Source: Psammoneis japonica
Taxonomy: Eukaryota
DNA length: 20,509 nt
NCBI GenBank assembly: GCA_008632985.1
Contig: QPGO01000114.1
Coordinates: forward strand, 248,001-268,509
Reading direction: 5' to 3'
Both the position numbers and the translations under genes were made by a program. Shown here piece after piece: positions 3,001 through 20,509 of the stretch. Each line of letters starts with the position of its first letter. The stretch's first letter is position 1. Below the pieces are notes generated by a model. It was not told the DNA's origin and searched no databases. It worked only from the letters and a program-made list of their open reading frames with translations.

Positions 3001-3723
3001 ACTGTTCTTCTGGGGACTGCTCATTCACCCAAAAAAGCTCTTTTTGTTGATGCAACAAGGCTGGTGCAATTTTTGGCAGCTCGTCAATCCAGTGGCTCTG
3101 GGATGTGCCCACACTTGCTTTTGGAGCCATTGTTGCAATGGGCGGCAAGCAGCAAAGGCAAGATCAAACATGGCAAAGTGAGCTGCCACAATTGCCCACA
3201 GATCGCCACACTTTGTTGCTCTCAGTTTGCTGCTGCACAGAGGTTGTTGGCTGTTTTCTGGTCATTGAAACATCTCTCTCTTGCTCTCTTTGTTCTGCTC
3301 TTTTTTTCTCCCTCCTTGCTCTCCCAGCATCAATTTTCCAAGCTGCTGGATGCATTTGGGGGTGTTGCTGCTGTGCAAACCAACCACCTGTGTTGGGCTT
3401 CTTTTGCAATCTTCCTTGTGGCTTGTGGCAACATTGTCAGCTGGTCAGGGTGTGCCTTTGTGTCGTGGAACATGACAAAGACTTTTTTTGCTGGTGGGTG
3501 CTGAGCTGCAGCAGGCAACGACAGCTGCAGTGTGCAACTGTCACACGCACATCTGCGATCACACATCACTCATTTGTGGGTCAATTGCACCACAGTCGTG
3601 GATGCGCGTGAAGGACAGAACGATCATGCAGAGTTGATCGGAAGTCGAAAACTGCAAAAAAGACATTGGCCCTTGGTGTCCATGTGAACAAAATGACATC
3701 AGAGAGAATGCTCGATGCAGTGC

Positions 3724-3725
<2 letters not shown>

Positions 3726-3795
<70 letters not shown>
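3726..3795. repeat. (CA)35 microsatellite
   Basis: Uninterrupted CA run, 70 bp. Confidence 0.98.
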
Positions 3796-3797
<2 letters not shown>

Positions 3798-4218
3798 CAG
3801 AGCGAGAGACAAACAACGACAATCTCGAAAGACATTTGGAAATTGAAATGGCCCCATGCTGGCCCACATGAAACAACAACAGTCATTGCCCAATGGCACA
3901 ATGCAGTTAAAACGCGGAGACATCATTGACGCTGTCAATGTCCGTCGAGTGATTCCGTGGCTCCATGTCAGCCGCCACCGCCAGAAAAAGTTCTGCTCTC
4001 ACATGCATGTGGACCAATGCTTGCACTCTCTTTGCAAACTGGAAAGATGGACAAAGCCTGAATGGCACTGAGAAGAGTTGCGCATGTCATCAGTGCCTCC
4101 CAGATGTCTCTGGCACACAGGACAGGCACAACTTGAGAGAAAGCCAGGCCACCGGAGTGAGCAAGAAAAGTGTGCAGCAGCTGCTGCTCTCTGCTCTGTC
4201 TCTAGAGCAGCGCCACTG

Positions 4219-4244
4219 CTCTCTGCTCTCTAGAGAGCAGAGAG
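4219..4244. repeat. 26-bp perfect palindrome
   Basis: CTCTCTGCTCTC-TA-GAGAGCAGAGAG; a related half-copy lies at ~4187-4210. Confidence 0.9.
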
Positions 4245-4431
4245 AGTGTGTGCACATTCGTTCCATTCATCTCAAGGGGGGGTCATTTGCTGCTTTTTTT
4301 AGCTCGAATTCGACCGAGTGGCTCGTGATTTGCACGATTTTTCTTGAATTTCACCGTGCTTCACCGTGGTGAAAACATCAAGCCACAAGTTAGTGACGGA
4401 GGTGCTGGTCCGTCTGCCAACTCTCATTCAT

Positions 4432-5046
4432 TCATGTTTTTTGTGCACCGCAGGTCACACGTGCATCAAATGTTTGTGGATGGACCACTGTGTTTTGGAG
4501 CCATGCCGACATTGCTGTCATCGTGCTTTGATCGTGGCATGCATGTGTCAGAACTGGTTTCACACCTGGAAGGAGGTGGAAAATCACTTTCCAGAAGACT
4601 TTGGGGTCTTTGTCGAGATCGCGGGTGTCAGCGACGAATGGCCAGCATGGGTTGAATGGCAAAACATCCGATCGACAATTTCATCCCCGCAGTTCATTCG
4701 TCAAGTTGTTGAAAAGGTTCATGCCTTAAAGTTGCACAGGGCCAGGAATGCACGGATGCTGCCCGTCTGGGGTGTTGATCTTCAAGTCGCGAAGGTCCAG
4801 GTTTTGGACAGATGCGTGAACATCTCTTTGGGCAAGAAGATGCATTTTTCATTTTTGAAAAACGGAGAGCTTCATTTGTGTCGCCCAAAATTCTTGTGCA
4901 GACATCACCCTGACATGAAGTTGCAACATGCAGACGGTCTTCGTTGTTGCCACCATAGGGCCCTCTCTAGAGCATACGATGGAGAACCCCTCTGGCCATG
5001 ATCTCGAAGTCGCCCCACCTACATTAGATAACCCCGATAAACACAA
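4432..5046 (-). pseudogene. Degenerate ORF of unknown (probably TE) protein
   Basis: ORFs 4849-5046 and 4432-4662 lie in one minus frame that reads as protein throughout (FWATQMKLSVFQK*KMHLLAQRDVHASVQNLDLRDLKINTPDG...VLPFNPCWPFVADTRDLDKDPKVFWKVIFHLLPGV), broken by two TGA and one TAA. Confidence 0.5.
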
Positions 5047-5439
5047 ATTTTCTAGGAATCAATAGGAATAGAATTAACGATTTAGACAACTCGTTGTACA
5101 CCTACGGTTTTTTACTGCCACGGAGCTTGTTACATGGCTGTTTTGATAAGCAAAACCTGTCAGAAGTAGGACAATGCTGCTGTGCTTCGTAATCTCTGCC
5201 ATCCGCAGTCATCCGGGAAACTGAAAACTCTCATACGAGAGACTTCTTTCCGGCCATTGCAAGTCATGGTCAAGCTTCGTTCAAGCTTCAAGCAACAAGT
5301 ACCAGAACAGCTAGAAGTAGCTAGTCATAAACCTGTGCTACTGTATGTACTCGATAATCTTCATCCCCGCAGGGTAGAATACCAAGGCTCTAATCACGTT
5401 ACACCACCGGCAACTTATTCAACTCAATAAGCGTGGCAT

Positions 5440-6734
5440 CAAAAGCTTCCCTTCTCCGGTACTGGTCGGAAGGCCCAAGTAACGATAGGGGCAGTCCACT
5501 AGCTAGACTAGAGCATTCCCTTCTGCTCTCGTAGGTACGCGATCCGGATCGTTGAGAGTTTGAAACTGATGGTTTGTAAAGTTTTCGAGAACGTCAGCAT
5601 TCAGCGTGACACACGGATACTCACGTTTGAAGGTAGACACGTCCACCGTCGTGAATTTGTACACATCCGGAAAGCTCTTTGTTAGGTTGCACCAAATATC
5701 GTGAGTATCGGAGCTCCAACGGCCTACCAATCTGTTCCGCCAGCACTCGAGCTTGCGTAATCAAGTCGGCGCCAAACTTTGTGACAATGCCTGCCATCTC
5801 AATGGAACGCCATAGCGCGCTCCCTTCCTCATGACGTACCCGTAGAAACTGTTGAGGATACACTTGTGGGCGACTTGAAGCGAGTCGTACAACAAAACCT
5901 TGTCTTCGGCCTCCTTCTTTCTTCGACGATGCTGGGACCGTCATGTCGCCTTGCCAACCTGCTTCTTCCAAGTCTTCGTCATTCTCAAGTACTCGTAGCG
6001 ACGATCACGAAACTGTCGCACCGAATCCACGTAAAAGTCATTGTCTCACATGCAGACCGTGTCAGTGCGGAGCACTTCCTCTGTCACCCTGGTTTTCGTA
6101 CAAGCATTCTGTGCGTAGGTCTTTAGACGGCTGGCAACCAGCCAGCCTGCCCCTTGTCGGCCAACTCATGAAAATGCCGTCAATCGGAAAGAGTCTCGCA
6201 AGAGAGCTGGTCTTTGGTACGGTCGTACTCATTCTTGATGACAGGGTTGTAGTCACCACGCCATACCCAATCCATCTTGCCACTGCAGCCATTCTTGGAT
6301 TGATTAAAGTTACACGAAGCACAGGTAGCGTCGTCCACAATGGCTCCCGGTTGTAGGCGATTCGTCAGAATGATATTTGGATACATGGCACAACGTCCAA
6401 ATGGTAAACATATTCGAATATGGCTTTGCCACCCGATTGGGTCAATCGCTAAACATCTCGAGCTTCTCGACAATCTGACAAGGAATCGGATTGAAAAAAA
6501 GAAAAGAGAATACCGTGAGTACAGTACAAAGCCACAGAACAAACATCAATTATACAAGACCTTACCTCGTCATGGTTGCAAATCTCGGTTTGATCCATAT
6601 CACCCTCCACTTCAATCGCAAAGGTAAGATCCCGATAGGCCTTGTCAATCAAGCCCTGTCAATCAAGCCCTGAAAAGAGCGCTCGGTTGCAAATTAAACT
6701 TGTACTCCATGTCCGAGCGGTAGACACCTGTCTC
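5440..6734 (-). pseudogene. POLE: DNA polymerase epsilon catalytic subunit, internal fragment, frameshifted
   Basis: Colinear motifs across frames: [161 protein letters not shown]. Several frameshifts and stops; intron-like GTAAG...TCAG at ~6565-6475. Confidence 0.93.
6643..6670. repeat. 14-bp tandem duplication inside the POLE pseudogene
   Basis: TGTCAATCAAGCCC x2. Confidence 0.9.
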
Positions 6735-7152
6735 ACGCGCGTAGATCGTCCACGAAAGCTCTGTCACGATGTGCTGTACCTGAGAGAATTTTTGTGGGGC
6801 GAAAAACGATTCGCTCGCCAAAAACACACACAACAACACGATACATCAACAGCACTTCAGACAGCTCTCTTCGGAAAGCAGAGCAGTAACACCTCGACCC
6901 AATACTTCCTTTTTCATTTACATTGTCTTCTTCATTTATGATGGTAAGTAAAGTTCAGTAGCACTGTGGGTAATGGAGAAAATGTACAATTTAGACTTAC
7001 AGCCTCAGTGTTTTTTCCTTTGCGTTTGCCGTCAGGTGTTTCGGCATTGGCGTCTCTCCGGATGCAATTTCCCCGGTAATTATGCGTTCTCAGCATCAGA
7101 CATGTCCTACATGACAACATATCAAAAGGGTCCGGCAGTATCATAACTGTGA

Positions 7153-8316
7153 GTTGATCGCTCCGAATAGGTTTGGTTGCATGTCTAATTTTGGTGATAC
7201 AAAACGGTACGCAATTTTCACGAGCTTGTATTTTTCCTGTTTTTACAGTTTGTGGTTGGGATAGATATCAAAGCAATACTCTCATCTAATCTATTATCTG
7301 TTTATTGTGCCATTACCACAGGAAGTATCTGTTAGTTGATCGCATCTGAATTGGGTTGGCTGCAAGTATTGTTTTGGCGAAGCAAGATAATGGTACGCAG
7401 TTTTTATGCGCTCGTATTAGCTGCTACATGGTTCACGGCTTGGATTGCTACATATCGAACATATACTCTCACGGACTCTATTGTCTATATCTTGTGCCAA
7501 TGTCACAGGAGATATAAATCAATTCGTATCCAATCTGAATTGATTTGCTTGCATCTATTTTTTGGAGAATCAAAACGGTACGCATTTCTTATGAACACGT
7601 ATTCTCCGCATTGTGCAGTTTATGGTTTGGATAGCTACATATCGAATAAACACTCTCATGGACTCTTTTGTCTATTTCTTGTGCCAATGCCACAGGAATT
7701 GTCAATGGACTTAGTTGACGCTTCACGGGCTGTCGTGCATGCATGCGTGATAAAGCACATCGGGGTCCACAGTTTTGTACAGTCATTACGGATGAGCTGG
7801 GTATGAACAGAAAGGCAAGATTCAACTGTGCACCATTGTCTATTACTCTCCTTCATCTATTGTTTTGGTGGTTCAAAGCGGTACGCATTCCTTATGAGCT
7901 AGTATGTTCCGCTTTGTAAGTTTGGTTTCTATGACTGCATATCAAAGCAATGCTCTCATGGACTGTGTTGTCTGTTTCTTGTACCATTACCACAGGAACT
8001 ATCTGTTTCTCGTAACATCACCACAGGAACTGTCTGTCAGTTTATCAAATCCGAATTGATTTGGATGCATCTATTGTTTGGGAGATTTAAGACGGTACAA
8101 TTTATCATACACCCACGTTCTCCGCTTTGTGCAGTTTATGGCTTGGACAGCAACATGTCGAAGAAATATTCTCACGAACTCCATTGTCTACTGCTTGTGC
8201 CTTGGCCATGGGAATGTCAAAAATCCTTTTAGCTTGATGGGCTGTTGTGCGTGCATGCGTGGTGTTGCGTCGGTGTCCGCAGCTTTGTATCAACATTATG
8301 GATGAGCTAGGTATGG
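7153..8316. repeat. Five diverged ~185-bp tandem units plus a twice-repeated ~80-bp spacer
   Basis: Anchor (C/T)GGTAC(G/A) at 7205, 7391, 7576, 7879 and 8093; shared ..TCTCAYGGACT..TTGTCT..TGTGCC...CACAGGA; spacer GGGCTGT...GGATGAGCT.GGTATG at ~7727-7805 and ~8240-8316. Confidence 0.88.
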
Positions 8317-8369
8317 CAATGTGTTGATAGCCAGATCTTGAAGCAATGTTACCAATAAGGAATGCAGTC

Positions 8370-8842
8370 AAATCTATGAACTGTCGGTCCCTTCCATTGT
8401 CTGATGTAGTACAAGGATCAGCTTAGATCCTATCTAGATCTCCCCTTTCGATGGGCGGAACTCGGAACAGTCTACCGGTAGGTTCAGTTCTCATGTTGTG
8501 CTTTCGTGTTGAATGTTCTACTTCTCTGGAATTAACGCTTACCTCGCAAACTCTGGCTGTTCTGTGTGCAAGAAGCAAGAGGTCGGGTGCCTTGCATGTG
8601 CTGATGCGCGTCCGTGGTTTTACACAAGACGAGCTAGAGTACAAGACAAGATTGTTCAAGAACTAGACTTGACCGTAACGATTCTTTCTTGCTTTGGTTT
8701 TGATGAGTATGACATTGTGCTTTCAATGTGACCAGAACAGCAACGCATTCCAATCACGGCTGTCGTAGGTGTGAAAATAGTGGAGTCCGGCAAGCTCACG
8801 GTTCGTAGCCGTAAAGAAGGCGACCTTGCTTTATTCAGCATC
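8370..8842 (+). pseudogene. thrS: Threonyl-tRNA synthetase (bacterial/organellar type) fragment, frameshifted and internally deleted
   Basis: K.MNC..FHCLM.YKDQLRSYLDLPFRWAELGTVYR; intron-like GTAGG...AG at ~8478-8572; RSGALHVLMRVRGFTQDE; LDLTVTILSCFGFDEYDIVLSM*PE joined directly to anticodon-domain QRIPITAVVGVKIVESGKLTVRSRKEGDL. Confidence 0.9.
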
Positions 8843-9803
8843 TATGCTTGTGATTACCTTTAGCAATGGCTTGATAGTCAGAATCCCAGAAGTAACCCAG
8901 TTTTGAGTAATGGCATTGTTGGGTTTCCCTTTTCTCAAACGCAAAACAATAGGCCGGGCACATAGATGCGGCAGAGTCGTCAAGCTTTCTTATTTTATTG
9001 CAACAGAGTCTATTCTACTAGAAATCTGTTTCTTCTAGGCTCTCAAGGCTAGAAGTAGAAGTGGGAATGGAGATCACAGTTTCATTGAAATGCTCCTAGT
9101 GCCACGTAAAGGATCCAACTCGATATGAGCTCCGTCCTTGGTAGCAGAACGTATGGACTTATAATTCCATTCCTCTCCATCAACTTCAGGTGAAAATGGA
9201 GCCTTGTAATAACCATTTCACCTTTTCCTTTGAAGCCCTGTCCAACCAAGTGAATAAATGATGCTCTCAAAGCAATGGTCGATCCCTTTTTCCAGCATGG
9301 AACTCTGTAATAAGCCAACAGCGGATGCGCAGTCTTGGTGGCGATTCAGCACTGAGCAATCTCTTTGCAATGGCATTCGGAATCACTCCAATGCCATTGG
9401 CACAGATCACATGCCAGCAACTGTGACCTTGGCATGTTGTATTGAGTATATGATGTCAGCACAAGTGATTGTGTTGTCGGTTGTGGCAGAATATGAACGC
9501 AAACTTGTCGGTTGTTGTGCGTTGCGTCGCGGTGAATTTGTAATTATTTCGGGTTTCGCCCCACAAAAATTCTCTCAGGTACAGCACATCGTGACAGGCG
9601 GAAGTACCAGCGTGATCCACCTCATCGTTTTGTCGTTCGCGCGCGCGCTGAGTGTGCGAATGCGCGTGTGCGAACGACAACAGACGATTTATGCACCTCT
9701 GCCCAGCGCAGCATGCACACCGCCGCAGCAATGATCTTGCTGCGCTGTTGCCGCTGTGCTATTGAAGCAAGAAATCCCGTTATTCTTAATCATAGCACTC
9801 ATC

Positions 9804-10331
9804 ATGTCTACTTATATGCTTCATCACAGTGCCAATGAACGCCGCAAAGTCATGCTGGAAAAGCTCGGTGGTCGCAAAGTCTTACACGAGGCGATTGACA
9901 AGTTTTACGACAAGCAAATCCACGATGAAACCTTGATGAAGTACTTTGAAGGCGTCGACGTTCAAATTATTAAATGGCATCAATTCAATCTCATGTCGAT
10001 TGCCTTTACAGAAATTCCAGAAAACTTTGACGTAATGCAATTATTGCTTACGAGGCACAAGCGTCTGTTTGATCTCGGATTGTGTGAACGGCATTTTGAT
10101 TTAGTAGCTGAGCACTTTTCAGATACTTTGCACGAAATGAATGTAGACGAAAAGCTCCAAAAGGAAGCTTTGGAGGTTGTAATGCCACTTCGTGATGTTT
10201 TTGAGCAGGGTGCAAAGGAAGCTCAGGAGCGGAAAAAGGAAGAAGCGTTTCGGCGACAAGTCATTCTGGCGGTTCTGGTGGGCGTGGTGGCTGTGGGTGT
10301 TGTACGGTTTGTTCGATCCAAGAAACATTAG
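9804..10331 (+). CDS. Group I truncated (2/2) hemoglobin with C-terminal transmembrane tail anchor, 175 aa
   Basis: Intact ORF from ATG 9804 to TAG. LEKLGG...AIDKFY (B9-B10 FY), L.KYF.GVD, HQ (E helix), RH.RL (proximal His), GL.ERHFD.VAEH. Then a charged linker, hydrophobic VILAVLVGVVAVGVV and basic RFVRSKKH. Confidence 0.9.
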   Translation: MSTYMLHHSANERRKVMLEKLGGRKVLHEAIDKFYDKQIHDETLMKYFEGVDVQIIKWHQFNLMSIAFTEIPENFDVMQLLLTRHKRLFDLGLCERHFDLVAEHFSDTLHEMNVDEKLQKEALEVVMPLRDVFEQGAKEAQERKKEEAFRRQVILAVLVGVVAVGVVRFVRSKKH

Positions 10332-10708
10332 AATAGAATACCGTCGTCGAGTGATCATGAGGCAGAGAATCTCTGATCAATTTGAAATTTTTGGCGAGTT
10401 CGAGATTGTGGAACGCTCCAGAAAGAATAGATAGGAAACTAATCTAAAGGTAGGAGAGACTTGTTTGAAGCTGATAAATCAACAGGTTTCTCTCAGCTCG
10501 TATCCATGCCAAATACACTCTACACTAGGTGGTCTAATGGGGTATGTTAGTGATAGTACCATAAAAGTGTTCTTCTGTATGTGTTGGAAGGTCAAACATA
10601 GGTATAGGCGGAGATTGAAGGTGGGAAAGGTTGAACCATAAGTCCAAGGACTTTCTCTCTAGAGGAATACAAATAATACCTCTTATTCCAACCGGAGACT
10701 GCAATAAA

Positions 10709-11390
10709 GGCAAACCGGAAGCTCCAAATGATTGTCCGAACACAAACAGACTCGTGATCAACGAGACCATGCTTAACCCGTCAAAGGTCAAGCATGGCAA
10801 AGTAGAATGGTTTAAACGGATGAACTATCAAGGAAGATGAGGTTAATAGTCACGTCATTGAAAACGGCTAGCCTCTCCATATCACCCTTGGCGGACTCCT
10901 TGTGCTCGGAAATAACGGCAACGTCATTGACAGCGACAGTGCCGCTTCATACTGTGACTAGTGCAATCGTTTGCAGCTGAATAACGGTGGTGACGAGCTC
11001 GTTCTCGTAGACAGACAAGATGTCGAGGTTGATCGTGTAGCTTGGCATGTGGGGTCTGATGATTTTCCATACCAGAATGATGCAACCAAGGCAGTCCGAG
11101 ATGCGACTCTTGACAACAGCATTGGTACAAACTGGTACAGCGAAGGAACACCTGGAACGAAATTATGTGTGTCCGAATCCTAACATAAGCGAAGATGGAC
11201 CGGTCTCTTTGAGGACAGTGATCATGTGCAATCGTGCTCAAGTTTCAGACACGTTGGGTGAATGGGTGGGGCTCTTCAATCCGGCGCGTCGTGGGCTTTA
11301 CGCATTGACGGAAAGAGCTGGTGTGTGGAGCCACTCCGTATGGTGGTGGTGATTTAGGCGCTCCGGGAGCCAAGAATGACTGCCCTCCCG
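10709..11390 (+). pseudogene. Tandem lamin-tail-domain (LTD) protein remnant
   Basis: GKPEAPNDC; LVINETMLNPSKV..GKVEWF..MN; SHVIENG*PLHITLGGLLVLGNN; LNNGGDELVLVD...VDRVAW; EGTPG; second copy IMCN.AQVSDTLGEWVGLFNP...PYGGGDLGAPGAKNDC. Stops and frameshifts present. Confidence 0.75.
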
Positions 11391-11529
11391 GTCGCTGAAT
11401 GGAACAGGAGAAAAGAGGTAACATCAGAGGCTCTAGGTGATAGCGTCGCTTGTGCTGTAGTAGCAGGAATAAAGGTAAGCACGTGTTAATAAAGATCTTC
11501 AACTCCCATCCTTACCTAAATGATATTGT

Positions 11530-13110
11530 CTAGGATTGGAGGAGCCAACTATCAATCAACTTTCGTGCCAGTACCCCATGTGGTGGAATCAACAACGGCA
11601 ACGTTGGATCATTTTCCATTGCTTTCTTTGCCACTTCGTGTAACATAACCGCTCCAGGACCGATCGATGCCTTGACCACATCGTCAAAATCAAACCAAGC
11701 AAATTCTACCAATTCTTCCTCGTCCATGTTAGTCTCTTGATTCTCATCCACCGTGGCGTGAAAATCAATCATGCAGGAACGGGGAAAAGGCCACGGTTGA
11801 GATCCGATGTACGACACAGAGTCCGTATCAATGCACACGCCGGTTTCCTCAAACACTTCACGACGAATCGCTTGTTCAAACGTTTCTCCGGCTTCGACAA
11901 AACCAGCCAGAGCCGTGTGCATTTTGGGTGGATGGCGTGGTGTCTCGCTAGTAGGGCACGATTCTTGAGTCGATTGGTGACTAGAACAATAATGCTGGGA
12001 TCCTGACGAGGCCAACTCATGACACCGCAGCCCGTACACCTTTGGCATGATCCGCCTTGAAATGTGATGAGCGATGAACCACAACTGGAACAGCGCTTGT
12101 GTGTCTTTTTCCATTGTGACAAGGCGGTTGCATACAACGCAAGCTCGTTGTGTTTCTCGTTCAGGAGCGGTGCTTGTGTTCAAGAGTACGCAAAGCTTCC
12201 TGCTACGTCAAACGATGAATCATCTTGATCATCATCCAGGTCAATACTAAAGACTGCGGAGCCATCGGAAGCGAGTCCAAGAAATGTCTTTTCGCTATTG
12301 TCTGGTACACTTGAAGACCAACAAGAGCTAATTCAGTAGGCGATGCAAACAAGCATTCTCGACCACGGACAATAACATGCTTGGAATCTGCTTGCTCCTC
12401 GAGGTTTTGGATAGCTTCTTCATCTCGTCGAAGATGCGTTGCCCGATCCAGACGCGTACATGACGCAATCATTTCATTGCTTTCACCCACAGCATCACGT
12501 AGAATTCCACTTGCATCGAACGCCAAATTGGCAGCAGCGTCCGGTTACAATCGCATGTTCCCCTGACGATTTGCATGGGTCGGGTGCACCACCGTCTGCG
12601 CCAAACAACCGGACTGACGAGTCGTCGTCTCGCCCAGCAATGGCAATAGCCGCAAAACCCTTGTTGTGTCCTTTGGGTCTAAAGGTGGGACTGGCGGCAC
12701 TTCCTTCGGCAATGGCATAATCGACATTCATTTGTTTACAAAGCGCAAGCCCCGCTTCTGCAGTCCAGTGGAGTTTTGATCGGATGTACCCGTCCGCTTC
12801 AGTTTCATCAGGCATGGCATCGTTCTTGAAACTGACGAGTTTCGAATGAAGAACTTTATCACTTTTTAGAGCAGCGGCAAGGCCTTCCGGGTGTTGTAAG
12901 CGACAGAGCCTCCATAAAATACAGCGGAAGAACATGATGGAGGAAGAAAGGACTCCACCCGCGGAACATTCCACAGTAGTCACGGTCTTTTTCAACTTCT
13001 TGAGACCATTGACCAGTCTCGTGAACGATGGTGAGCGGAAGCTGTGATTGATCACCTTGAGACGACGCAGTATGGAGAAGCAAATGATTTCTAAAAGCCT
13101 GCATTGACAT
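11530..13110 (-). pseudogene. nudC: CinA/PncC-like (NMN deamidase fold) plus NudC-type NADH pyrophosphatase fusion, multiply frameshifted
   Basis: 5' part: VTTVECSAGG, SSAVFYGGSVAYNTRKA, DYAIAEGSAASPTF.P.G..KGFAAIAIAG (CinA C-terminal fold). Then LDRATHLRRDE, zinc ribbon CSSCG...CTGCG..WPRQDPSIIVLV, Nudix box AGFVEAGETFEQAIRREVFEETGV and NudC signature SQPWPFP. Motifs are spread over several frames. Confidence 0.85.
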
Positions 13111-13282
13111 ACAACACTACAACTAATTCGCGACGATGACTAGAGTAGAAGTAGCTACCGGTAGCAGTGCTGTAGAGAGTTTGGGCCGTTGTTGTCGTTT
13201 GTCGTTGCACTCATCGAAACGAACGCGGCAGGTGTCATTCACCTGAAGAGAGAAGGAAGCATGGGAGTTAGTTGTGCGTGGA

Positions 13283-13698
13283 GCACCCCTGTGGTAGGGG
13301 AGAATATGGTGATGTCATGGTTACGTGGCAGTTTATATCTTATTCATTATATTTTTATATAAATGTCCTCACATTTATTTATGCATTTGTACACAAATGC
13401 CAATAGTAACAGGAAAAATCCTGAACACTCCACGCACACCCCTGTGGTAGGGGAGCTGTGTGTGTGTGCGTGGTTGTGCGCGCACGGCTTCGCCGTGCGT
13501 TGAGTTTCAATCTTAATATCCACACGAATGTGTATATTCCATAAGTAAAAATTTATTCAGGATTTTTCCTGTTACTATTGGCATTTGTGTACAAATGCAT
13601 AAATAAATGTGAGGACATTTATATAAAAATATAATGAATAAGATATAAACTGCCACGTAACCATGACATCACCATATTCTCCCCTACCACAGGGGTGC
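13283..13698. mobile_element. Foldback/MITE-like element: 143-bp perfect inverted arms around a 130-bp spacer
   Basis: 13283-13425 is the reverse complement of 13556-13698. The spacer holds a direct copy of the terminal CACCCCTGTGGTAGGGGAG (13437-13455), a short TG run and the hairpin GCACGGC-TTC-GCCGTGC. No TSD. Confidence 0.75.
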
Positions 13699-13972
13699 CC
13701 GGGTTCCTTTGGGCGTGCAGAGAAAAGACCCGAGCGAGTGACAGACCATTTTCATCTAAGAAGCGACCTCGCTCAGCGCGGTTCCGTCCGGCCTTCGTAC
13801 GGGACCTTTCGAAAACCACTTGCACAAAACATCACAAAAATCGCACACCATGACGAGTGCCGCCGACGCGTCGTCGTGTAGCGCTATAACTGTTATGATA
13901 ACAACTACCAAACCTTGCACACACGATCTAACAGTATTCAAGTACATGTTCATGTTTTAGATTTGCTGAAAT

Positions 13973-15184
13973 ATGTCGGTTTCATCGATTGCGCCGCGGT
14001 TGAATAGCGACACTCATGGAAGCACACAAAATGCGGCTCCGGAGTATAACATGACCCAGGAGAGGCAAATTATGCTTGTTGATCCCAAAATCAACCTTTC
14101 AATCGTTCGAGTACTTGGTTTGAAATACAATGGATGCGAGATACCACGTCACATTCTCGGTTATGATGCTAATTGGCAAAACGTTTTTCGGAAGGTCCGA
14201 GATTTCGTCAAAATGGATGCCGCTGAGCAGAAGATCGAGAAGAACCGCTGGGGCAAGTTCCCACGATGGGAAAAAGACATATATGAACGAAGGATTCGCG
14301 TATTGAATGAGCAAAAGGCTGCTATTCATGAAAAGTATGCGCAAGTAACCATCGGAACTGCAAAATTACCGCGATCAGTTTCACCCGTGCCAGAACCGGT
14401 CGCGCAACAAGCATCAGTCGCTACAGACAATGATACCGCCGGAGAACAACAGGTAGAGCCACCTAGCAGTGTATCTGACAAAAGACTGACATCAGCCGGT
14501 TTGTCAGAATCGTCAAAGGTTTTTTTTAGAGGCAAGAGCAGAAAGCGTCGAAGCAGAACTCCAGCGTCGGAGTCTGTGGAACAAACAAGCGCCCCCGCCA
14601 ACGACGGTAGATCGAGTTTCAATCTGAAAGCTACATCACTTTTTTCCCCAGTAGAAGAACGTCTGGCTTTGGTAGAAGATGCAGAAAAGGTAAAAAAATC
14701 TCGAAACACTTTGCATCTGATGGGAACGAATGCAGCTTCTCTCAGCCAACAGGCGGACAGAACTGCGATTGATTCGATTCACGCACTGTTGAAGAAAGCG
14801 GGAACTGCTGCTGATACGACACACTATCCAAATCGGCTTGATAATGAACCGTGTGTGCGTGTTGTGTGCTTGGTTTTGAACGGGATTGAACCTTCCGAGA
14901 CGGATGGCGGGCAACGAAATACAATCGACCTTCCTGCCAAAAAGCCGGAGTTGCTGTTGGTCACGCATTCAGGGGACGATATAAAGCCTGTAATGCAAGC
15001 GTTCAAGGCTGTCACTAGGAGTGAAACAAGAAGCAATGATGCTTTTCACTTTTACCCATTAGTTGCTGGCAAGGATGGTTTGGTTTCATCTGCCGTTGAG
15101 AAATACATTGATGCTTTCAAGAAGAGTCGTAGGAAACCATCCAAAAAGCCTCGAGCGTACCCTGAAGTCATCGAAGAATTATGA
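13973..15184 (+). CDS. Element-encoded hypothetical protein, 403 aa
   Basis: Intact ORF with normal amino-acid composition. Helical N-terminal region, S/P/A/E-rich linker with basic NLS-like KSRKRRSR, globular-looking C-terminus. No family recognised. Confidence 0.8.
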   Translation: MSVSSIAPRLNSDTHGSTQNAAPEYNMTQERQIMLVDPKINLSIVRVLGLKYNGCEIPRHILGYDANWQNVFRKVRDFVKMDAAEQKIEKNRWGKFPRWEKDIYERRIRVLNEQKAAIHEKYAQVTIGTAKLPRSVSPVPEPVAQQASVATDNDTAGEQQVEPPSSVSDKRLTSAGLSESSKVFFRGKSRKRRSRTPASESVEQTSAPANDGRSSFNLKATSLFSPVEERLALVEDAEKVKKSRNTLHLMGTNAASLSQQADRTAIDSIHALLKKAGTAADTTHYPNRLDNEPCVRVVCLVLNGIEPSETDGGQRNTIDLPAKKPELLLVTHSGDDIKPVMQAFKAVTRSETRSNDAFHFYPLVAGKDGLVSSAVEKYIDAFKKSRRKPSKKPRAYPEVIEEL

Positions 15185-15260
15185 GCAGTTGTTGGATGGA
15201 CAGCATGTAGTATTTCAATATCTAAAGTACACTACTAGAATGAATCAATATACTACTACT

Positions 15261-15995
15261 TTAGAAAAATTGATAGCCAGGGGATTGGGATTGAGTAAAT
15301 CCCGTCATGTAGGCAAGGTTTGTCAAAGTTGAGCGATTCGATATCTCCAGCGGATCAAATTTTTTTGTCGGGCAAAGGGTGACGAGGATGGAGTGAAACA
15401 CCTTGAAGATTTTCTCAATCGATGCTTTCATTTCGCTCGTCCAATCTTCCTGCGAGTAAGTGGGAAGAACAGTTGATACAACAGTAATATCGCCATCCTC
15501 TTTGTATTCAGCAAATGTCAATGAGGCGTAATCTTGAATCCTTGATGACGTAACATGGACGTTGCCTCCGAAGAGTTGGTCCGGTGTTTCCTTGTTGCTC
15601 ATGAAATGACGAACCGGATCCATCTTGGCATTCGGAGGAGTGATTGTACCAGTACAGGATTGTTGAATAGGTTTCATACCACCATGTCCTTGCTCAAAAT
15701 GAACAGAATGCATAGTAAAGTCAGTCGTTTCACTGCTGCATACCGAGCAGTACAACGTCGCGTCACAACCTCTCAACGCGACGGAGCGGGCGTAGCAAGA
15801 GACACAAAGAGCACATTTTCCAGCACAACCCAGCTCAATAAAGCTTTCCATACATGTATAGATCTGATTCTCACAAGCTGTACATGACTTAATGGTCGAA
15901 TGAAGCGTATCGAGCTCACAATCGACTGTGACCCTGTTTGACGGAGAAGATTTACCATACACTTTCCGACGCCTTTTTTTTAATGGTTGTGACAT
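15261..15995 (-). CDS. Element-encoded protein with NLS and RING-like Cys8 zinc finger, 244 aa (possibly C-terminally truncated)
   Basis: PLKKRRRK, then CTAC-x15-C-x3-C-x2-C-x2-C-x14-CSVC. Confidence 0.75.
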   Translation of the reverse strand: MSQPLKKRRRKVYGKSSPSNRVTVDCELDTLHSTIKSCTACENQIYTCMESFIELGCAGKCALCVSCYARSVALRGCDATLYCSVCSSETTDFTMHSVHFEQGHGGMKPIQQSCTGTITPPNAKMDPVRHFMSNKETPDQLFGGNVHVTSSRIQDYASLTFAEYKEDGDITVVSTVLPTYSQEDWTSEMKASIEKIFKVFHSILVTLCPTKKFDPLEISNRSTLTNLAYMTGFTQSQSPGYQFF

Positions 15996-16500
15996 TTTGT
16001 GACAATACTGAAGCTACCCCAGTGATCCGAGATGAAAGAGTAACCGAGTCTATTAGTGGTATTGGATAATACTAAACGGTTGTTGAGCTACACGACGACG
16101 CGTCGGCGGCACTCGTCATGGTGTGCGATTTTTGTGATGTTTGTGCAAGTGGTTTTCGAAAGGTCCCGTACGAAGGCCGGACGGAACCGCGCTGAGCGAG
16201 GTCGCTTCTTAGATGAATTTTCAAAAACAGTTTTTGGTTTTTGATCGCCATACATCCGGGTTTTTATCGAATATTTGCCACGTGGAAGCAATTGAGACTA
16301 GGCGAAGAGAGATTAGACTATGAGTCTCTATCTCAACGCACCGTGGAACGAAGGCCAGACCTGCATGACATCACGATTGCGTCAATAACCCGGAAAATTC
16401 CTTTCAACCTGCACAGGGTTTTCGATTGTAGGGAATTCCTCATTCGACCCTGAATTTCCTTAGACAAGGAAAGACAAGGAAACCAGACAGGGAAAAATTA

Positions 16501-18342
16501 ATTGTCGTGATTTGCTGCGCAGTCACAACTGACACAATCATTTCATCAAGCGGTCGACTTGCCCAGAGCCTGCAGCTGCCAACACACTTCAACACACCAC
16601 ATTCAACGAGAAAGGCAGATGCCCTTGGGCACCACAGTCTTTGGGACAAAGAGGCAGCATGATGCTCCCATGTTCTCTTCCAGCATGTTTTCTCCAGTCG
16701 AGCCCACAACAAGCTCAAGTTGGGAGAAGAGTCATTCAACAGACGCACTTTTCAATGAGAAGCTTGTCAAGCTTTCTCTGTGGCTGCCTGCATTGTCCAT
16801 CATTGACGATGGCTGTCAGGACCAGCTGTGCTCCGTGCGACAATGGCGCTCGGCTTTCAGGCTTCTTGTTGCTGACAGTCACGCACCAAAAGCATGCGCA
16901 GCACCGCCACTGATGTCACACTCTGTGTGAGATTCCATGTCAGATCTTGGCACAAAGATTTTTGTTTGTCTTCTTTCTTGTCTTGGGCTGGCCACTTCCT
17001 TGCGATCAAAAACCCCAAACCTGCAACACAAGAAGACACAAAAGTGCAAGAAGACAACCAACCATGATGCAGTGCTGATGGGCCGTGCCTCACCCCCTCA
17101 TGAATGGTGCAACAGATGCTTGCATTGAGCTGCACAAGAGTGTGTCTTGCAAATGACTGTGACATCAGAAGGGCAACAACCAAAGTGAAGTGGTCGCAAA
17201 ATCTTCTGGCAAGTCGCTCCAATTGCCAGCGCCGTTGTTGCACCACAGTTGCTGTCAAACTGTTTCTCGTGCTGTTTGTTGCATTGTTTGTTGCCATCTT
17301 GTGGGAATCAATTGTGGATGGAAATTGAGTCAGGGCCTTGAAATGGCCCTTGCTGCTTGGCTGTTGTTCTTGACAGTCTGGCCAGCAGTCGCCCCACATC
17401 ACAAATTGTTGCGGCAGGGCCCAGCACATCTGTTGCTTGCCTTCATTGCAGCCGTCAATGACCACACAAGAAAAAAGCATGGAATGAACCCAGGTCAGAA
17501 CAGCATGGATTTGAACATTGAATGACCAGGGCAAGCCGCCAGCAAACAAGTTGTGGCCCATCTCGATCTGTTCAGGTCATCCCAGCACTGCAATCTCATC
17601 CATGACTTTCAGCACACTCCACATTTTGTCTGACTCCAGTGCAAACACATCCATTTTGATCACATCAAAACATGATTCAAAAGATGACCCAAACCAAAAT
17701 CTTCCAAGATGTCTGTCAAACACAGAACACAGGCACTCCCTTTGCAAGAGTGTCTGCTCCCGACTTTTGGAGGTTCTCAAATTGCATGAATCATGTGGGC
17801 TTGGACTGTCTTGTCCTCCAACAACAGGCTTTCTGTTGTGACTGAGCTTGGTGTCTCTGAATCTTCTTCCTGGAGTGTGGTCCCTTGCTGCAGACATCCT
17901 CAAGAAAATGCTCAGCATCTGGGGGATCGACTGGTGTGGCCACAACAACTGTGAATGAGTGGGGAGAGACTGCCACCCTTGCAAGGGATCACAGTGTGTC
18001 CAAACTTTTGTGAAGGACAAGGGATGGTGATGGCACCTCGTGCAGCGACAAAGAGTGTGAGACTCGCTTTTGTGGGACAAATGATGGCAACAACAAGAAG
18101 GAAGAGAAATTCCATCCAGTCTTTTTGAGACCAACACTTGCGGGATGATTCTCAAGGGAAACTGGCTTTGCAACAAGCAACATGTCATGTCATGAGGTTT
18201 CGTGCCGGGGGTGGTTTTGATGCCTGACCAGAGAAAGCGCGTGCTGTGGAAACGCCAAGAGCCCAAAAGTTGAAACAGTTTGCAACATGACTCAATCGAC
18301 AGAAGGGCAAGAGTGAACCACAAAGCTGTGGTGGGAGCATTT
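16501..18342. mobile_element. TpA-free decayed repeat or TE relic with a minus-strand ORF remnant (~17250-17800)
   Basis: I found no TA dinucleotide between 16501 and 18342. ORFs 17577-18323 and 16857-17561 share a frame and are separated by one TGA (..KVMDEIAVLG*PEQIEMGHNLFAGGLPWS..). Confidence 0.55.
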
Positions 18343-18600
18343 TACAGCATGATGTCAAGAGCCCGCAAGTCCGCTCAGTTGACAGAGTGGCAAGAACAAA
18401 CTACAAAGCCGTGGCGGGAGCACACCATGGCAACACAAAAAGCCCGAAAATCGAAACAGTTCACAATGCGGCTCAATCGATGGAGCACAGAGTGCAAGAG
18501 CGAAGCATGGTGGGAGCATGTTCTGGTGCCGCCAAGATCCCAAAATCGAGATAGTTCGCAACGTGGCTCATTCGATAGAGCAGCAGGAGCGAACTACAAA
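18254..18600. repeat. Four diverged ~90-bp tandem units
   Basis: Recurring ..CAAGAGCCC.AAA.TYGA.AYAGTT..CAA..GCTCA.TCGA..GCAAGAG.GAA..ACAAAG..GTGGYGGGAGCA. Confidence 0.85.
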
Positions 18601-18771
18601 TGACTTGTCAGTGTCTTTCTTCTTCTTACTAACAAGTTGAACGCACCATGGAGTCTTCGCCAGGTCATTCTCGACCAACACGTTTGGATTTTTTTTGCAA
18701 CAGTACAGTAGGATTATATGTTAAACTTTCTCTAATCTTTTGATCCGTTTCCGTCTTTTCGAGCTTCTTCA

Positions 18772-19191
18772 AAATGCACATTTTGGTAACCTTTCATGTG
18801 TCATCATATAAAATTACAGAACAACACACAAAAGCAAGCACTTAAGCTCTGCCCTTGTTTGTGTCCCAAACTTTGCAAGTCACAATCCTGCAACACTGCC
18901 TGTCATCGGGGCCATCTCGAGCGGCTATCAAGATAGATACCGAGCACGGCGAAAAAAAGGTGGAGTGAGCAAGATGCATATTTTGGTGCACTTTTTATCA
19001 TAACATGTACTTACAGCATAATAATATCATACAAAACAGAAAGCACGACAGCACAGTCCTTCGTTGCCTCCCTGTTGCAATCCCGGAATCCTGCCTATGA
19101 GTGCAGTACTGTAGGGCTATCTCGACCGGCTACAAAGGAGACCGAGCACGGCGAGAAAAAGGCCTCTTGTAAGCAAAATGCACATTTTGGT
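18772..19191. repeat. Diverged ~200-bp tandem duplication
   Basis: AA.ATGCAYATTTTGGT at ~18772, ~18971 and ~19175; GGGCYATCTCGA.CGGCTA...ACCGAGCACGGCGA.AAAAAGG occurs twice. Confidence 0.8.
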
Positions 19192-19995
19192 TAGCTGTAA
19201 ACTACACTATCACTGAACGATACTTACAGGCCCCATATAAACCATGCCACATTTGATTGTTGTGAAATTGTACAGAAACTACAAGGTAATTCACGATGTT
19301 GTCGAAAACGGAAAGCACGAGAAAGACACGACGGTGAGCAATAAGTCGAGTTATATGCATGAGATAACAATCAACACGACTCAACAAACAAACCATATAA
19401 AACATAACATCAGTTTTTGCATTGAGTCATGCTTCTTCATTTCTATCGGTACAAAATCAAAACCATGAAGTAGGCTCTCGTGTAAGTACGAAGTGCGTCT
19501 TGCGTCTTGAGTCGAGCAAAACAGTCCTTACGGTGGCGTTTCTTATTTCGATAGGGTCCACAGCTTGCAAGCGATGTGATAGAAATTATGCCAAAATTCA
19601 GATGCTCGTTCCTGCAAATGTAACAGGCTAAAGAGCTAAGTGTTTGGAAGTTTGAGATAGCGAGAGAAATAGAGACATAACACGCAAAAACGGATTGCAG
19701 CGGCTCACCTTCAATCCATCATCCATCATAAGTCATCCCCTCCCACACTTCATCTTAAAACTCCCACTGCTGTCTCAACACAAACAAACAGCGCGAACAA
19801 AACGCGCAGTTTTTGAAAAGCAGCGACGCCATTTCAAAAACTCTTTTCAAAAACTCTCGCTTTTTTCACCACGACGAAGTGCGGAGAGTCTCGAGGCTCT
19901 TCGCCTCTTGTTATTTCGAGTCTCGCTACGGCACGCGACACGCGACACCGATCTATCGATCAAGTCCCGGCTTGGGAGGTCTGTGATTGGTACGG

Positions 19996-20142
19996 TCTCA
20001 CTTTGGTCTCAGCCATTTCTCAGTTTGTCTCAGTTTCTTCTCAGGTTTTTCTCAGCTGTCTCAGCACTCTCTCAGGGGAATCTTGGCATTGTCTCAGCAG
20101 CTGTCTCAGCCAAAAAATTGCTCTGTCTCAGCGTTGTCTCAG
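19996..20142 (+). repeat. Phased array of TCTCAG hexamers (~11-bp period)
   Basis: Exact TCTCAG at 20007, 20018, 20028, 20039, 20050, 20059, 20070, 20092, 20104, 20126 and 20137; variant TCTCAC at 19996. Confidence 0.9.
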
Positions 20143-20361
20143 AAAATCTGAAAATTAAAATTCCATGAGTGCACCAATTTTGATGCTGGAAGAGAATCCT
20201 GCAATGTCTCAGTTGACGAAAACTGCCGACTGAGACAGGTGACCGAAAATCTTGCAGAAATCCATAAAACAGGATTCCATTTTTTTTTCTTGTATGTGGC
20301 CACGAGCGTTTTGGAGTTTCGTGATCACTTCTCACTTCTTCTCTGCTCTGCTCTCTAAACC

Positions 20362-20509
20362 ATGAGTGCAAACAACCAAAACGCCGTCCCCGCCGATGTG
20401 GTCGTCCCTGGCCCTCCTGACGCTGTGGTCGTCCCTGGCCCTCCTGATGCTGCCCAGCGCGAAGAGTCCGCCAGCATTGCCGGCTTCAGCGCTGCCTTTT
20501 TCGATGCGT
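20362..20509 (+). CDS. 5' end of a putative ORF running off the window (MSANNQNAVPADVVVPGPPDAVVVPGPPDAA...)
   Basis: ATG in AAACCATG context; frame open to the window end; in-frame 27-bp tandem duplication (VVVPGPPDA x2). Confidence 0.45.
   Translation, partial: MSANNQNAVPADVVVPGPPDAVVVPGPPDAAQREESASIAGFSAAFFDA

Follow-up and report, generated by a model that had tools for sequence, protein, structure and literature searches.

In Neurospora and other ascomycetes, repeat-induced point mutation (RIP) converts C:G to T:A, mostly at CpA, on both strands of repeated or foreign DNA, and creates TpA; duplicates exceeding a length threshold are mutated together, and the process requires cytosine methyltransferases of the RID/DIM-2 type, as well as a sexual phase. 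Decay of CpG stems from the deamination of 5-methylcytosine in methylated repeats. A-to-I deaminases (ADAR, ADAT2/3, TadA and the base editors derived from TadA) prefer a 5' U or T, and the deaminated A is read as G: the natural target of TadA/ADAT, A34, follows U33, and ADAR, which hyperedits repeat RNA, is a metazoan family.

The closest described system is that of the chlorarachniophyte Bigelowiella natans. According to a preprint, new mutations arising in lines of B. natans occur only at TpA, giving TpG or CpA, in discrete regions, and an ADAT2 homologue is proposed as the agent (Mettrop et al., bioRxiv 10.64898/2026.01.13.699255). The same text indicates integrated viral DNA as the target, with a Rho of 0.45 in an NCLDV region, and an enrichment of TE-type domains among TpA-depleted genes; RIP is named in its discussion, and both ADAT2 and ADAR are considered (10.64898/2026.01.13.699255). 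Cytosine methylation takes part in the control of transposable elements (PMC9998398). The 2026 chlorarachniophyte preprint is so far the only report of a natural, programmed A:T-to-G:C mutator of nuclear DNA; in a full-text literature search, no report of TpA hypermutation in diatoms was found, and the B. natans preprint was the only one retrieved, a SPLASH paper mentioning both diatoms and hypermutation having no bearing on the subject.

The DNA analyzed here, referred to as the window, is a single stretch of 20,509 nucleotides. It most probably belongs to a diatom-like nuclear genome featuring domains of directional TpA to CpA/TpG hypermutation. A tandem array straddles the edge of one domain.

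TA-erased blocks and the tandem array

The domains of the window, the units of the array and the right edge of TA erasure are reported in Table 1. N1, taken as the reference for base composition, contains globin-like, NUDIX and CinA-like ORFs.

Table 1. Position and features of domains, array units and edge within the window
Feature	Position	Strand	Description
B1, TA-erased	1..4955	.	13 TA in 4955 nt, obs/exp 0.04; extends past the window start
N1, normal, gene-bearing	4956..16499	.	TA obs/exp 0.64, CG 0.98
B2, TA-erased	16500..18551	.	2 TA in 2052 nt, obs/exp 0.02; CG 0.40; CA+TG 1.74
U1	18247..18349	+	inside B2; the three TA sites read CA; 2 CG left; a TA survives in the tail, at 18343
U2	18350..18427	+	inside B2; TA kept at 18402; one site reads CA; 4 CG left
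U3	18428..18522	+	last unit inside B2; TA sites read CA, TG, CA (18457, 18481, 18506); 5 CG left
Right edge of TA erasure	18507..18551	.	bounded by 18506, the last site converted, and by 18552, the first TA retained
U4	18523..18600	+	outside B2; 3 TA (18552, 18576, 18595) and 6 CG kept
N2, unmutated flank	18552..19991	.	TA obs/exp 0.64, CG 1.05; non-coding, multi-copy
B3, partly erased	19992..20509	.	4 TA, obs/exp 0.12; CG 0.71; extends past the window end

In the two larger blocks (2 and 5 kb), the observed to expected ratio of CA+TG is 1.74-1.80, against 1.19-1.21 in the normal stretches; G+C is 0.49 in the blocks and 0.44-0.46 outside. B2 would contain about 95 TA if it were as rich in them as the DNA next to it. 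Losses and gains are of similar size: with N1 as the baseline, the TA deficit of B2 is 0.046 per nucleotide and its CG deficit 0.027, 0.073 in all, against a CA+TG excess of 0.067. For B1 the deficits amount to 0.075 and the excess to 0.074 (0.070 when the (CA)35 run is subtracted).

None of the 79 block ORFs (at least 60 aa) and of the 31 flank ORFs (at least 40 aa) reaches the curated Pfam cut-off; a few Pfam matches at E 0.005-0.05 were taken as noise. The Pfam analysis of the 79 ORFs thus gives no transposon protein signal in the blocks, and B2 has no coding signal (no ORF of at least 60 aa at the Pfam cut-off). Because of the missing transposon signal, the "repeat DNA" label of the blocks derives only from summed contig depth and from aligned copies. 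Rfam gives no match within the window, and self-BLAST of the window detects no similarity between B1 and B2. Reading frames in the blocks are open only through the absence of TAA and TAG.

The first-pass annotation had described a tandem repeat across the edge of a "TA-free block". The repeat is real, and consists of four diverged units (18247-18600), crossing the right edge of B2. A four-unit profile, run against the window, finds exactly four matches (E from 6e-27 to 4.5e-16; the next one has E 2.1), and a repeat search reports two 3-copy families, in register. A degenerate 27-letter core has 3 matches in the window, compared to 0 in 100 shuffles, and 0 in the metagenome contigs. TRF (score at least 30) does not report the array, because its units are only 64-77% alike. 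For the same sequences, the alignment used is that produced by MAFFT genafpair; default MAFFT misaligned U2 and U3. In this alignment U2 features an internal gap of 17 columns, with 16-17 bases fewer than in the adjoining units, and the homology of U4 to the other units stops at 18600. As for the block itself, its extreme TA depletion stands, while the description as strictly TA-free does not, as TA occurs at 18343 and 18402.

Contigs from a public run, with word depth 56-73, agree with the window without a single difference over 17120-17678, 18381-19268 and 19242-19808, thus reproducing both the TA-free sequence and its edge, which is crossed by the second of them, 888 nt long. Since 31-letter words are exact at this depth, accurate reads are required; the run is one sample of one study, and may be the source data of the assembly, so that this support is not independent. 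The sequence of one contig is different at 20265, 20270 and 20448, which are all TA/CA or TG/CG places and may hint at an elevated de novo rate.

Other genomic copies are represented by 212 contigs, aligned at 80% likeness or more, with 482 transition and 165 transversion places, 40 of these 647 being listed. Among the places listed, 8 of the 17 to the right of the edge have TA in the window and TG or CA in the copy; inside B2, again among those listed, none of 22 has TA in the copy, and four are CA/TG double differences, for which an ancestral CG is possible as well as TA. The contig of one copy has a deletion of 44 nt at 18691-18736, continues for 255 letters or more to either side of it, and therefore spans the edge: array and N2 belong to one repeated element. 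The stretches 16000-16499 and 18552-19925 are multi-copy and unmutated here, and N2 is mutated in other copies. Repetition alone is therefore no predictor of the target.

Direction of TA loss, CG decay and position of the edge

States of the TA and CG sites were compared across units. The first-pass annotation had stated that all three TA of U4 are CA in U1, and this holds on the genafpair alignment, where 18276, 18300 and 18319 of U1 face 18552, 18576 and 18595; the TG which it had noticed in the third copy is found at 18481, opposite the TA at 18576. Also correct was its count of four out of five CG turned into TG or CA: those at 18547, 18557, 18562 and 18590 read TG, TG, CA and TG in U1, and that at 18573 is kept. 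A sixth CG of U4, at 18530, lies beyond the span then considered, and is kept in U1 too.

In 7 of the 8 cells opposite a U4 TA, exactly one transition is found, with no transversion; the remaining cells of every column with TA, 8 in number, read CA or TG. In the reverse sense, of 24 cells with CA or TG in U4, none reads TA in U1-U3. With U4 as reference, the 16 nucleotide cells of TA sites contain 7 transitions and no transversion (Fisher p 0.004), the 30 of CG sites 10 and none (Fisher p 0.011), and the 161 of the other sites 20 and 15, the sample being limited to 8 TA cells and 15 CG cells; TG or CA stands opposite a U4 CG in 10 of the latter. When the 14 transitions and 5 transversions separating U4 from U1 are placed at random over 77 positions, all 3 TA are hit, once each, in 1.9% of the cases, at least 4 of the 6 CG are hit in 4.6%, and the TA and CG outcomes occur together in 0.05%.

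Four CG columns (7, 35, 40, 74) present CG, TG and CA in different units, and one TA column reads CA, CA, TG, TA: since the states are mixed in this way, conversion is later than duplication. The latter column had been offered as grounds for TA ancestry. At the level of the sequences compared, however, a single CA/TG/TA column is not decisive by itself, because a CA ancestor would get by with two steps as well, if U3 and U4 were sisters, and a CG ancestor could give both CA and TG.

A second array, located in normal DNA (7144-8315, 72-78% identity), served as control. Here 58 of 80 TA are kept and 13 are CA or TG; the transition rate is 0.094 at TA and 0.066 elsewhere (p 0.24), so that no excess of change is seen at TA. 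CpG sites decay in the control array as well, outside the blocks and at a lower rate, while TA sites do not. The conclusion that TA is ancestral, and was lost to CA/TG, in the direction opposite to RIP, is accordingly supported by the 7/8 versus 0/24 asymmetry, by the control repeat, by the mass balance of the blocks and by the direction measured in B. natans.

Both strands are hit, as indicated by the CA:TG ratio of 236:210 in B2 and by the presence, in U3, of both outcomes within 50 nt. Long tracts changed on one strand are not supported by a runs test on CA versus TG (z +0.1 in B1, -2.2 in B2, -2.6 in normal DNA).

The intensity of the process, as previously proposed, depends on position: only 2 TA are left in B2, while TA obs/exp is 0.64 on both sides. 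No TA is present in 16500-18246, and the last 300 nt or so before the edge are leaky. The edge cuts through both a repeated element and an array of homologous units, so that the stop is set by position, not by sequence. The locus therefore shows the direction of the change, its confinement to a domain, an edge localized to about 45 nt and a positional stop.

Loss of TA and loss of CG, which had been described as coupled, share the domain, but coupling is too strong a term. TA loss is saturated up to the sharp edge (obs/exp 0.02-0.07); CG loss is partial, with obs/exp 0.21-0.64 in the blocks and 0.98-1.05 outside, and fades 0.5-1.5 kb ahead of the TA edge. In B1, CG obs/exp rises from 0.21 (1-3500) to 0.64 (3501-4955), so that the loss fades before its own TA edge as it does in B2: in both 18001-18551 and 3501-4955, TA obs/exp is 0.06-0.07 and CG obs/exp 0.63-0.64. 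In the array, the CG count climbs toward the edge (2, 4, 5 and 6 from U1 to U4). As CG also decays outside the blocks, these data separate TA erasure from CpG decay, as two distinct processes sharing a domain.

The TA surviving in B1 and B2 follow a sequence rule: 12 of 15 are YTAR, compared to 15.6% in normal DNA (p 6e-8), 6 of 15 are TTAA, compared to 2.8% (p 2e-6), and none is RTAY. Products expected from hits at TAY outnumber those from hits at TAR in three of four sub-blocks; the preference is absent in sub-block 3796-4955, and is contradicted by array column 79, where CTAC became CCAC in U1 and U3. The specificity revealed by the survivors would appear to be enzyme-like.

Proposed process and alternative explanations

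The above features are most probably explained by discrete kilobase-sized domains of non-coding, multi-copy DNA, in which TpA has been turned into CpA or TpG until TA is nearly gone, the change being from A:T to G:C at TpA on either strand. CpG decays to TpG/CpA within the same domains, at a slower pace and over a narrower space. In this view the array was duplicated before hypermutation acted; U1, U2 and U3 were then converted independently of one another, and U4 was spared, together with the DNA to its right. The agent may be an enzyme with a sequence preference, for which a TadA/ADAT-like DNA adenine deaminase is the likeliest candidate, by analogy with B. natans. Such a candidate would act best at 5'-TAY-3' and poorly at TTAA, and might be directed to silent chromatin, whose limits would set the domain edges. 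CpG decay could represent the ordinary deamination of methylated cytosine in the domain core.

The edge might alternatively be a chimera, where unequal crossing-over or gene conversion joined a mutated copy, on the left, to an unmutated paralogue or allele, corresponding to U4 and N2. Tandem arrays are prone to recombination; the element is multi-copy, the array and the N2 part are both found in other copies, and the genome contains N2 in both mutated and unmutated form. U4, however, is no farther from U1-U3 (72-77% identity) than these are among themselves (64-76%), and a clean joint predicts no gradients, while TA reappears in the leaky zone inside the edge and CG increases stepwise from U1 to U4. 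The CG fading of B1, which likewise precedes a TA edge, also speaks against a chimera, and such an origin is unlikely.

A different chemistry may be envisaged, leaving the domain process and its direction as in the main explanation: T in 5'-RTA-3' would be modified or oxidised (TET/JBP-type, hydroxymethyl- or formyl-uracil) and mispair with G, resulting in T to C without adenine deamination. Formyl-uracil mispairs with G, and some protists modify thymine. Furthermore, a change of TA to CA appears as TA to TG when the opposite strand is read, which makes the attacked base indistinguishable, and the flank rule may be read as TAY or as RTA. Adenine deamination, on the other hand, has a natural TA-reading precedent for ADAT/TadA in U33-A34 of tRNA anticodon loops, and is what the only published case proposes, with ADAT2 as a candidate, although that is itself a proposal. 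The thymine route is accordingly given a low probability.

Should the classical RIP direction apply, CA/TG would be ancestral and the TA of U4 and of its flank would derive from C-to-T changes at CpA. This outcome, which the first-pass annotation had indicated as contrary to its own reading, is seen neither in the array nor in the copies, among the 40 of 647 places listed. Columns 30 and 79, containing only CA or TA, would fit either way if taken alone. Yet under the RIP direction it is the gene-bearing domain of 11.5 kb that would have been mutated, and the TA-free state would be ancestral, while the "TA-rich" DNA matches genes in TA obs/exp (0.64). It also leaves unexplained the CG of U4 opposite TG in U1, since RIP makes no CG, requires a TA intermediate for the TG at 18481, and has no counterpart in the control array. 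Contradicted by array, composition and control repeat, it is rejected as extremely improbable.

Modified DNA causes systematic errors in some long-read base-callers, and false CA/TG could result from base-calling or assembly errors at modified bases, as the contig departing from the window at TA/CA or TG/CG places might suggest; this has a negligible probability, and is rejected on the grounds of the exact contigs, of the indels and transversions which also distinguish the array units, and of the sequence rule obeyed by surviving TA. Equally to be rejected, and hardly credible, is a foreign origin of the blocks, or a selection against TA (for example against TA-targeting transposons or nucleases): the higher G+C and the lack of recognisable genes would agree with it, but both states are found among homologous units of one array and among copies of one family, the excess of CA+TG is equal to what is missing in TA and CG, and the rise in G+C runs as TA to CA/TG predicts.

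Returning to directional hypermutation at TpA, a more general picture may be tentatively drawn, although it is more doubtful than probable. Diatoms would possess a genome defence based on a TAY-selective, nearly TTAA-blind DNA adenine deaminase, aimed at silent chromatin and not at homology, which would erase TpA to saturation, in a heritable way, as far as edges roughly the size of a nucleosome, also where these cut homologous arrays; together with Bigelowiella, this would point to an old, widespread SAR trait. If the same process does operate in diatoms, their repeats, pseudogenes and base composition need to be re-read, a second lineage becomes available for finding the enzyme, and there may exist in nature a DNA adenine deaminase whose sequence preference is defined. 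The locus is a compact natural experiment, where adjoining homologous units reveal direction, two separate processes and a positional stop; the stop, at 18507-18551, is directly comparable with methylation and chromatin maps.

Comparison with known systems

Decay of CpG by methylation resembles the CG part of the pattern, as judged from the sequence: CG is depleted, the products are TG and CA, and the effect is strongest in the domain core. It explains this part only, being partial and graded, and cannot remove TA.

As with A-to-I deaminases, the change amounts to A being read as G, with T on the 5' side of the A. ADAR-type hyperediting followed by retro-copying, which would turn A into G only on the transcribed strand and within the ends of the retro-copied element, was considered, and is contradicted by the CA:TG balance, by the two outcomes within U3 and by the edge inside the element. 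Unlike RNA hyperediting by ADAR, the change has become fixed in the genome, with both strands affected within 50 nt; unlike retro-copied ADAR edits, its limits ignore the ends of the element, and a retro-copy step is neither needed nor indicated.

Like RIP, which affects repeated or foreign DNA, may leak, and inactivates heritably, the process produces transitions at one dinucleotide on both strands. The sense is opposite: TpA is destroyed here, and CpA/TpG are gained in the mutated blocks. Moreover, unlike in RIP, duplicates are not mutated together, as U4 is spared, and so is the multi-copy DNA of 16000-16499 and 18552-19925, while other copies are mutated. The pairing of duplicates is therefore not enough to trigger the process, given the escape of one array unit and of entire multi-copy stretches.

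With B. natans, as described in the preprint, the locus has in common the TpA hit, the TpG or CpA products according to strand, the discrete regions, and a long-term TpA depletion accompanied by CpA+TpG enrichment in clustered windows. The host is a diatom-like stramenopile here, a chlorarachniophyte there. The rate of de novo mutation was measured in B. natans, according to the same text, while the present process is known from sequence alone. The targets may also differ from those that the text reports, being non-coding, multi-copy DNA in which Pfam gives no viral or TE protein signal. A CpG decay is co-located here, and separable, while "CpG" is absent from the preprint text; TTAA and YTAR are spared here, and that text nowhere uses the words "context", "flanking" or "trinucleotide". 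Finally, compared to the Rho of 0.45 given there for the NCLDV region, erasure is here nearly complete (obs/exp 0.02-0.04), and, unlike in the B. natans case as far as its text describes it, ends at sharp edges inside a repeated element.

Composition of the window and its repeats

Dinucleotide counting splits the window into five stretches, listed in the table: B1, B2 and, partly, B3 are TA-erased, while N1 and N2 are normal. Relative to N1, the deficit per nucleotide of B2 is 0.046 for TA and 0.027 for CG, 0.073 in all, and its CA+TG surplus is 0.067; for B1, deficit and surplus are 0.075 and 0.074 (0.070 without the (CA)35 run). Since deficits match surplus, the blocks have the composition that N1-like DNA would reach on conversion of both TA and CG to CA/TG.

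Based on the reading frames matched in N1, the window is nuclear, diatom-like stramenopile DNA, to which the protein collection holds no close relative. The NUDIX frame matches NAD+ diphosphatases at identities of at most 66%, named relatives including a Bacillariaceae MAG, Fragilariopsis cylindrus, a Thalassiosira and Aureococcus. Introns probably interrupt the globin, NUDIX and CinA frames.

Domains, reading frames, repeats and surviving TA sites of the window ("o/e": observed over expected)
Feature	Position	Strand	Details
B1, TA-erased	1-4955		TA n=13, o/e 0.04; CG o/e 0.34; CA+TG o/e 1.80
N1, normal	4956-16499		TA n=543, o/e 0.64; CG o/e 0.98; CA+TG o/e 1.21
B2, TA-erased	16500-18551		TA n=2, o/e 0.02; CG o/e 0.40; CA+TG o/e 1.74
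N2, normal	18552-19991		TA n=73, o/e 0.64; CG o/e 1.05; CA+TG o/e 1.19
B3, partly TA-erased	19992-20509		TA n=4, o/e 0.12; CG o/e 0.71; CA+TG o/e 1.30
Bac_globin-matching ORF (bacterial-like globin)	9735-10328	+	E 5e-7; in unmutated N1
NUDIX/NAD+ diphosphatase-matching ORF	11533-12207	-	E 9e-17; in unmutated N1
CinA-like ORF	12498-13139	-	E 1e-5; in unmutated N1
Four-unit array	18247-18600		head-to-tail; U1-U3 within B2, U4 beyond
Control tandem repeat	7144-8315		TA-rich normal DNA
Perfect 143-nt inverted repeat	13283-13425 / 13556-13698		spacer 130 nt; foldback or MITE-like; unmutated DNA
144-nt segment and inverted copy	13751-13894 / 16075-16217		96.5%; both in unmutated normal DNA
44-nt perfect inverted copy	6761-6804 / 9554-9597		2.7 kb between; normal DNA
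Perfect (CA)35 microsatellite	3726-3795		within TA-erased B1
Surviving TA in B1+B2 (n=15)	363, 495, 661, 866, 1105, 2088, 2781, 3908, 4203, 4231, 4300, 4391, 4727, 18343, 18402

Direction of change

Pairwise identities between the array units are 64-77%, and each pair differs by indels and by 4-5 transversions; given this divergence, the units are old. The first-pass annotation had taken TA as ancestral, one site having resolved to CA in one copy and TG in another, and had reported joint TA and CG changes between U4 and U1. All the bases it cited are correct on rechecking, and random placement of the U4-U1 changes yields the joint observation in 0.05% of trials. The one-column argument is, by itself, suggestive only, but the direction is borne out.

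TA occurs in at least one unit at columns 30 (U1 and U3 CA, U2 gap, U4 TA), 54 (U1 and U2 CA, U3 TG, U4 TA), 79 (U1 and U3 CA, U2 and U4 TA) and 103 (U1 TA, U2 CA, U3 and U4 gap): the non-TA cells, 8 out of 8, are CA or TG. In columns 7, 35, 40 and 74, CG, TG and CA are each present in different units, establishing a CG ancestor, decayed after duplication. With U4 as reference, its TA sites show 7 transitions and no transversions in 16 nucleotide cells, its CG sites 10 and none in 30, its other sites 20 and 15 in 161 (Fisher p = 0.004 for TA, 0.011 for CG). The reverse change was sought at the CA/TG cells of U4, and TA was found in 0 of the 24 corresponding cells of U1-U3.

The control, a tandem repeat of comparable divergence (copies 66-78% identical, offset by about 180-190 and 510-520 nt), retains TA in 58 of 80 aligned cells, with CA/TG in 13. 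Its transition rate is not raised at TA sites (0.094 vs 0.066 at other sites, p 0.24) and is slightly higher at CG sites (0.132, p 0.03). Because the control keeps TA, TA loss is a property of the domain, not general to diverging repeats. CpG decay is general, though roughly threefold faster within the block: of 15 CG cells there, 10 are altered, vs 10 of 45 in the control.

Array asymmetry, control repeat and mass balance all indicate a change from TA to CA/TG, and the reverse reading is absurd, since gene-bearing DNA would then be the mutated part. The direction of repeat-induced point mutation (C:G to T:A, with CA/TG ancestral) is rejected.

The edge of erasure and the other copies

TA loss is all-or-none, and its right limit in B2 falls between 18506 and 18552. 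By dinucleotide count no TA is present within 16500-18246; leakiness is confined to the last 300 nt of B2, where TA is retained at 18343 and 18402. CG loss, in contrast, is graded: CG numbers are 4 in 17501-18000 and 18 in 18001-18500, and rise toward the edge from 2 in U1 to 4, 5 and 6 in U2, U3 and U4. In 18001-18551 and 3501-4955, TA obs/exp is 0.06-0.07 but CG obs/exp is 0.63-0.64. The coupling of the two losses, proposed in the first-pass annotation, thus holds as co-localisation, but they are separable; their differing profiles mean two processes in one domain, the CG one narrower or slower. The dependence of TA-loss intensity on position, also proposed there, is confirmed: the stop is positional, the edge cutting an array of homologous units. 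The main rival, for the edge only, is recombination within the array, joining mutated and unmutated copies; it appears unlikely, as the leaky zone, the CG gradient from U1 to U4 and the ordinary distance of U4 from the other units speak against it.

Contigs from a public run (one sample of one study, possibly the source data of the assembly itself) are identical to the window over 17120-17678, 18381-19268 and 19242-19808, at word depth 56-73. Because the second bridges the right edge, a mis-join at the junction is excluded. Nor does the TA-free text stem from base-calling errors in error-prone reads, given the identical contigs and their depth.

At 80% likeness, 212 contigs represent other copies, with 482 transition and 165 transversion places; the following tallies concern 40 listed of these 647 places. 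Judging by summed depth, not itself a copy number, the stretch 16000-19925 would be present in several copies and the DNA beyond 20077 in one. Among 17 listed places right of the edge, the window has TA and the copy TG/CA at 8 (18808, 18810, 19483, 19530, 19553, 19580, 19637, 20265); the others are TA vs GA (1), CA vs TA (1), TG vs CG (1) and other changes (6). Among 22 listed places in B2, no copy has TA; CA vs TG, differing at both letters, occurs at 4, and TG vs CG at 2. The one contig that covers 19883-20509 differs from the window at 20265 (TA>CA), 20270 (CA>TA) and 20448 (TG>CG), which may be allelic or strain variation from the same processes.

One copy's contig runs through the edge region and extends for 255 letters or more to both sides of a deletion of 44 nt (18691-18736), indicating that array and N2 are parts of one repeated element. 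Its left part is mutated both here and in other copies, resolved independently in each, its right part mutated in other copies and unmutated here. Other copies' contigs break away at the left limit of B2, with loose ends at 16416, 16450, 16460 and 16504, and two repeat elements may thus join there. The right edge coincides with no such junction.

Sequence preference and candidate agent

Of the 15 TA surviving in B1 and B2, 12 are YTAR, vs 15.6% of normal-DNA TA (p 6e-8), 6 are TTAA, vs 2.8% (p 2e-6), and none is RTAY; TTAA density in the blocks is about 65% of normal. TA is thus spared where a purine is 3' of A on both strands or, in other-strand reading, where a pyrimidine precedes T. This suggests that the mutator requires a pyrimidine 3' of A, equivalently a purine 5' of T. 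At strand-asymmetric sites, with CG decay split evenly, TAY-expected products number 19.8 per kb vs 1.9 for TAR, a surplus seen in 3 of 4 sub-blocks and absent in 3796-4955. In the array, ATAG sites (CA four times, TG once) are consistent with the TAY rule; the CTAC site (CA twice) is not. The preference may be taken as a lead, not a result.

The analysis shows the change to be directional, TpA-specific, two-strand, domain-limited, in genomic DNA, post-duplication and position-stopped. The sequence rule and the saturation suggest an enzyme as agent, most likely an ADAT/TadA-type adenine deaminase. ADAT/TadA enzymes read A following U in tRNA. The same data are compatible with a thymine-modifying route at RTA, which is considered improbable. 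The putative deaminase would be directed to its domains by chromatin state, because the edge is positional, multi-copy DNA escapes beside mutated DNA and CpG decay marks the domain cores.

Full-text literature searching found one relevant work, a preprint on TpA hypermutation in Bigelowiella natans (Mettrop et al., bioRxiv 10.64898/2026.01.13.699255). In its text, diatoms are unmentioned and the words "context", "flanking" and "trinucleotide" are absent; an ADAT/TadA-kind adenine deaminase is proposed as agent. The locus adds an internal polarity test for TA loss, an erasure edge running through homologous units, a separation between TA and CG loss and a sparing rule for TTAA and YTAR sites. 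In two regions of the B. natans mutation-accumulation lines, 230 of 231 mutations are A to G or T to C, all 230 on TpA: the direction measured there agrees with that inferred at the array.
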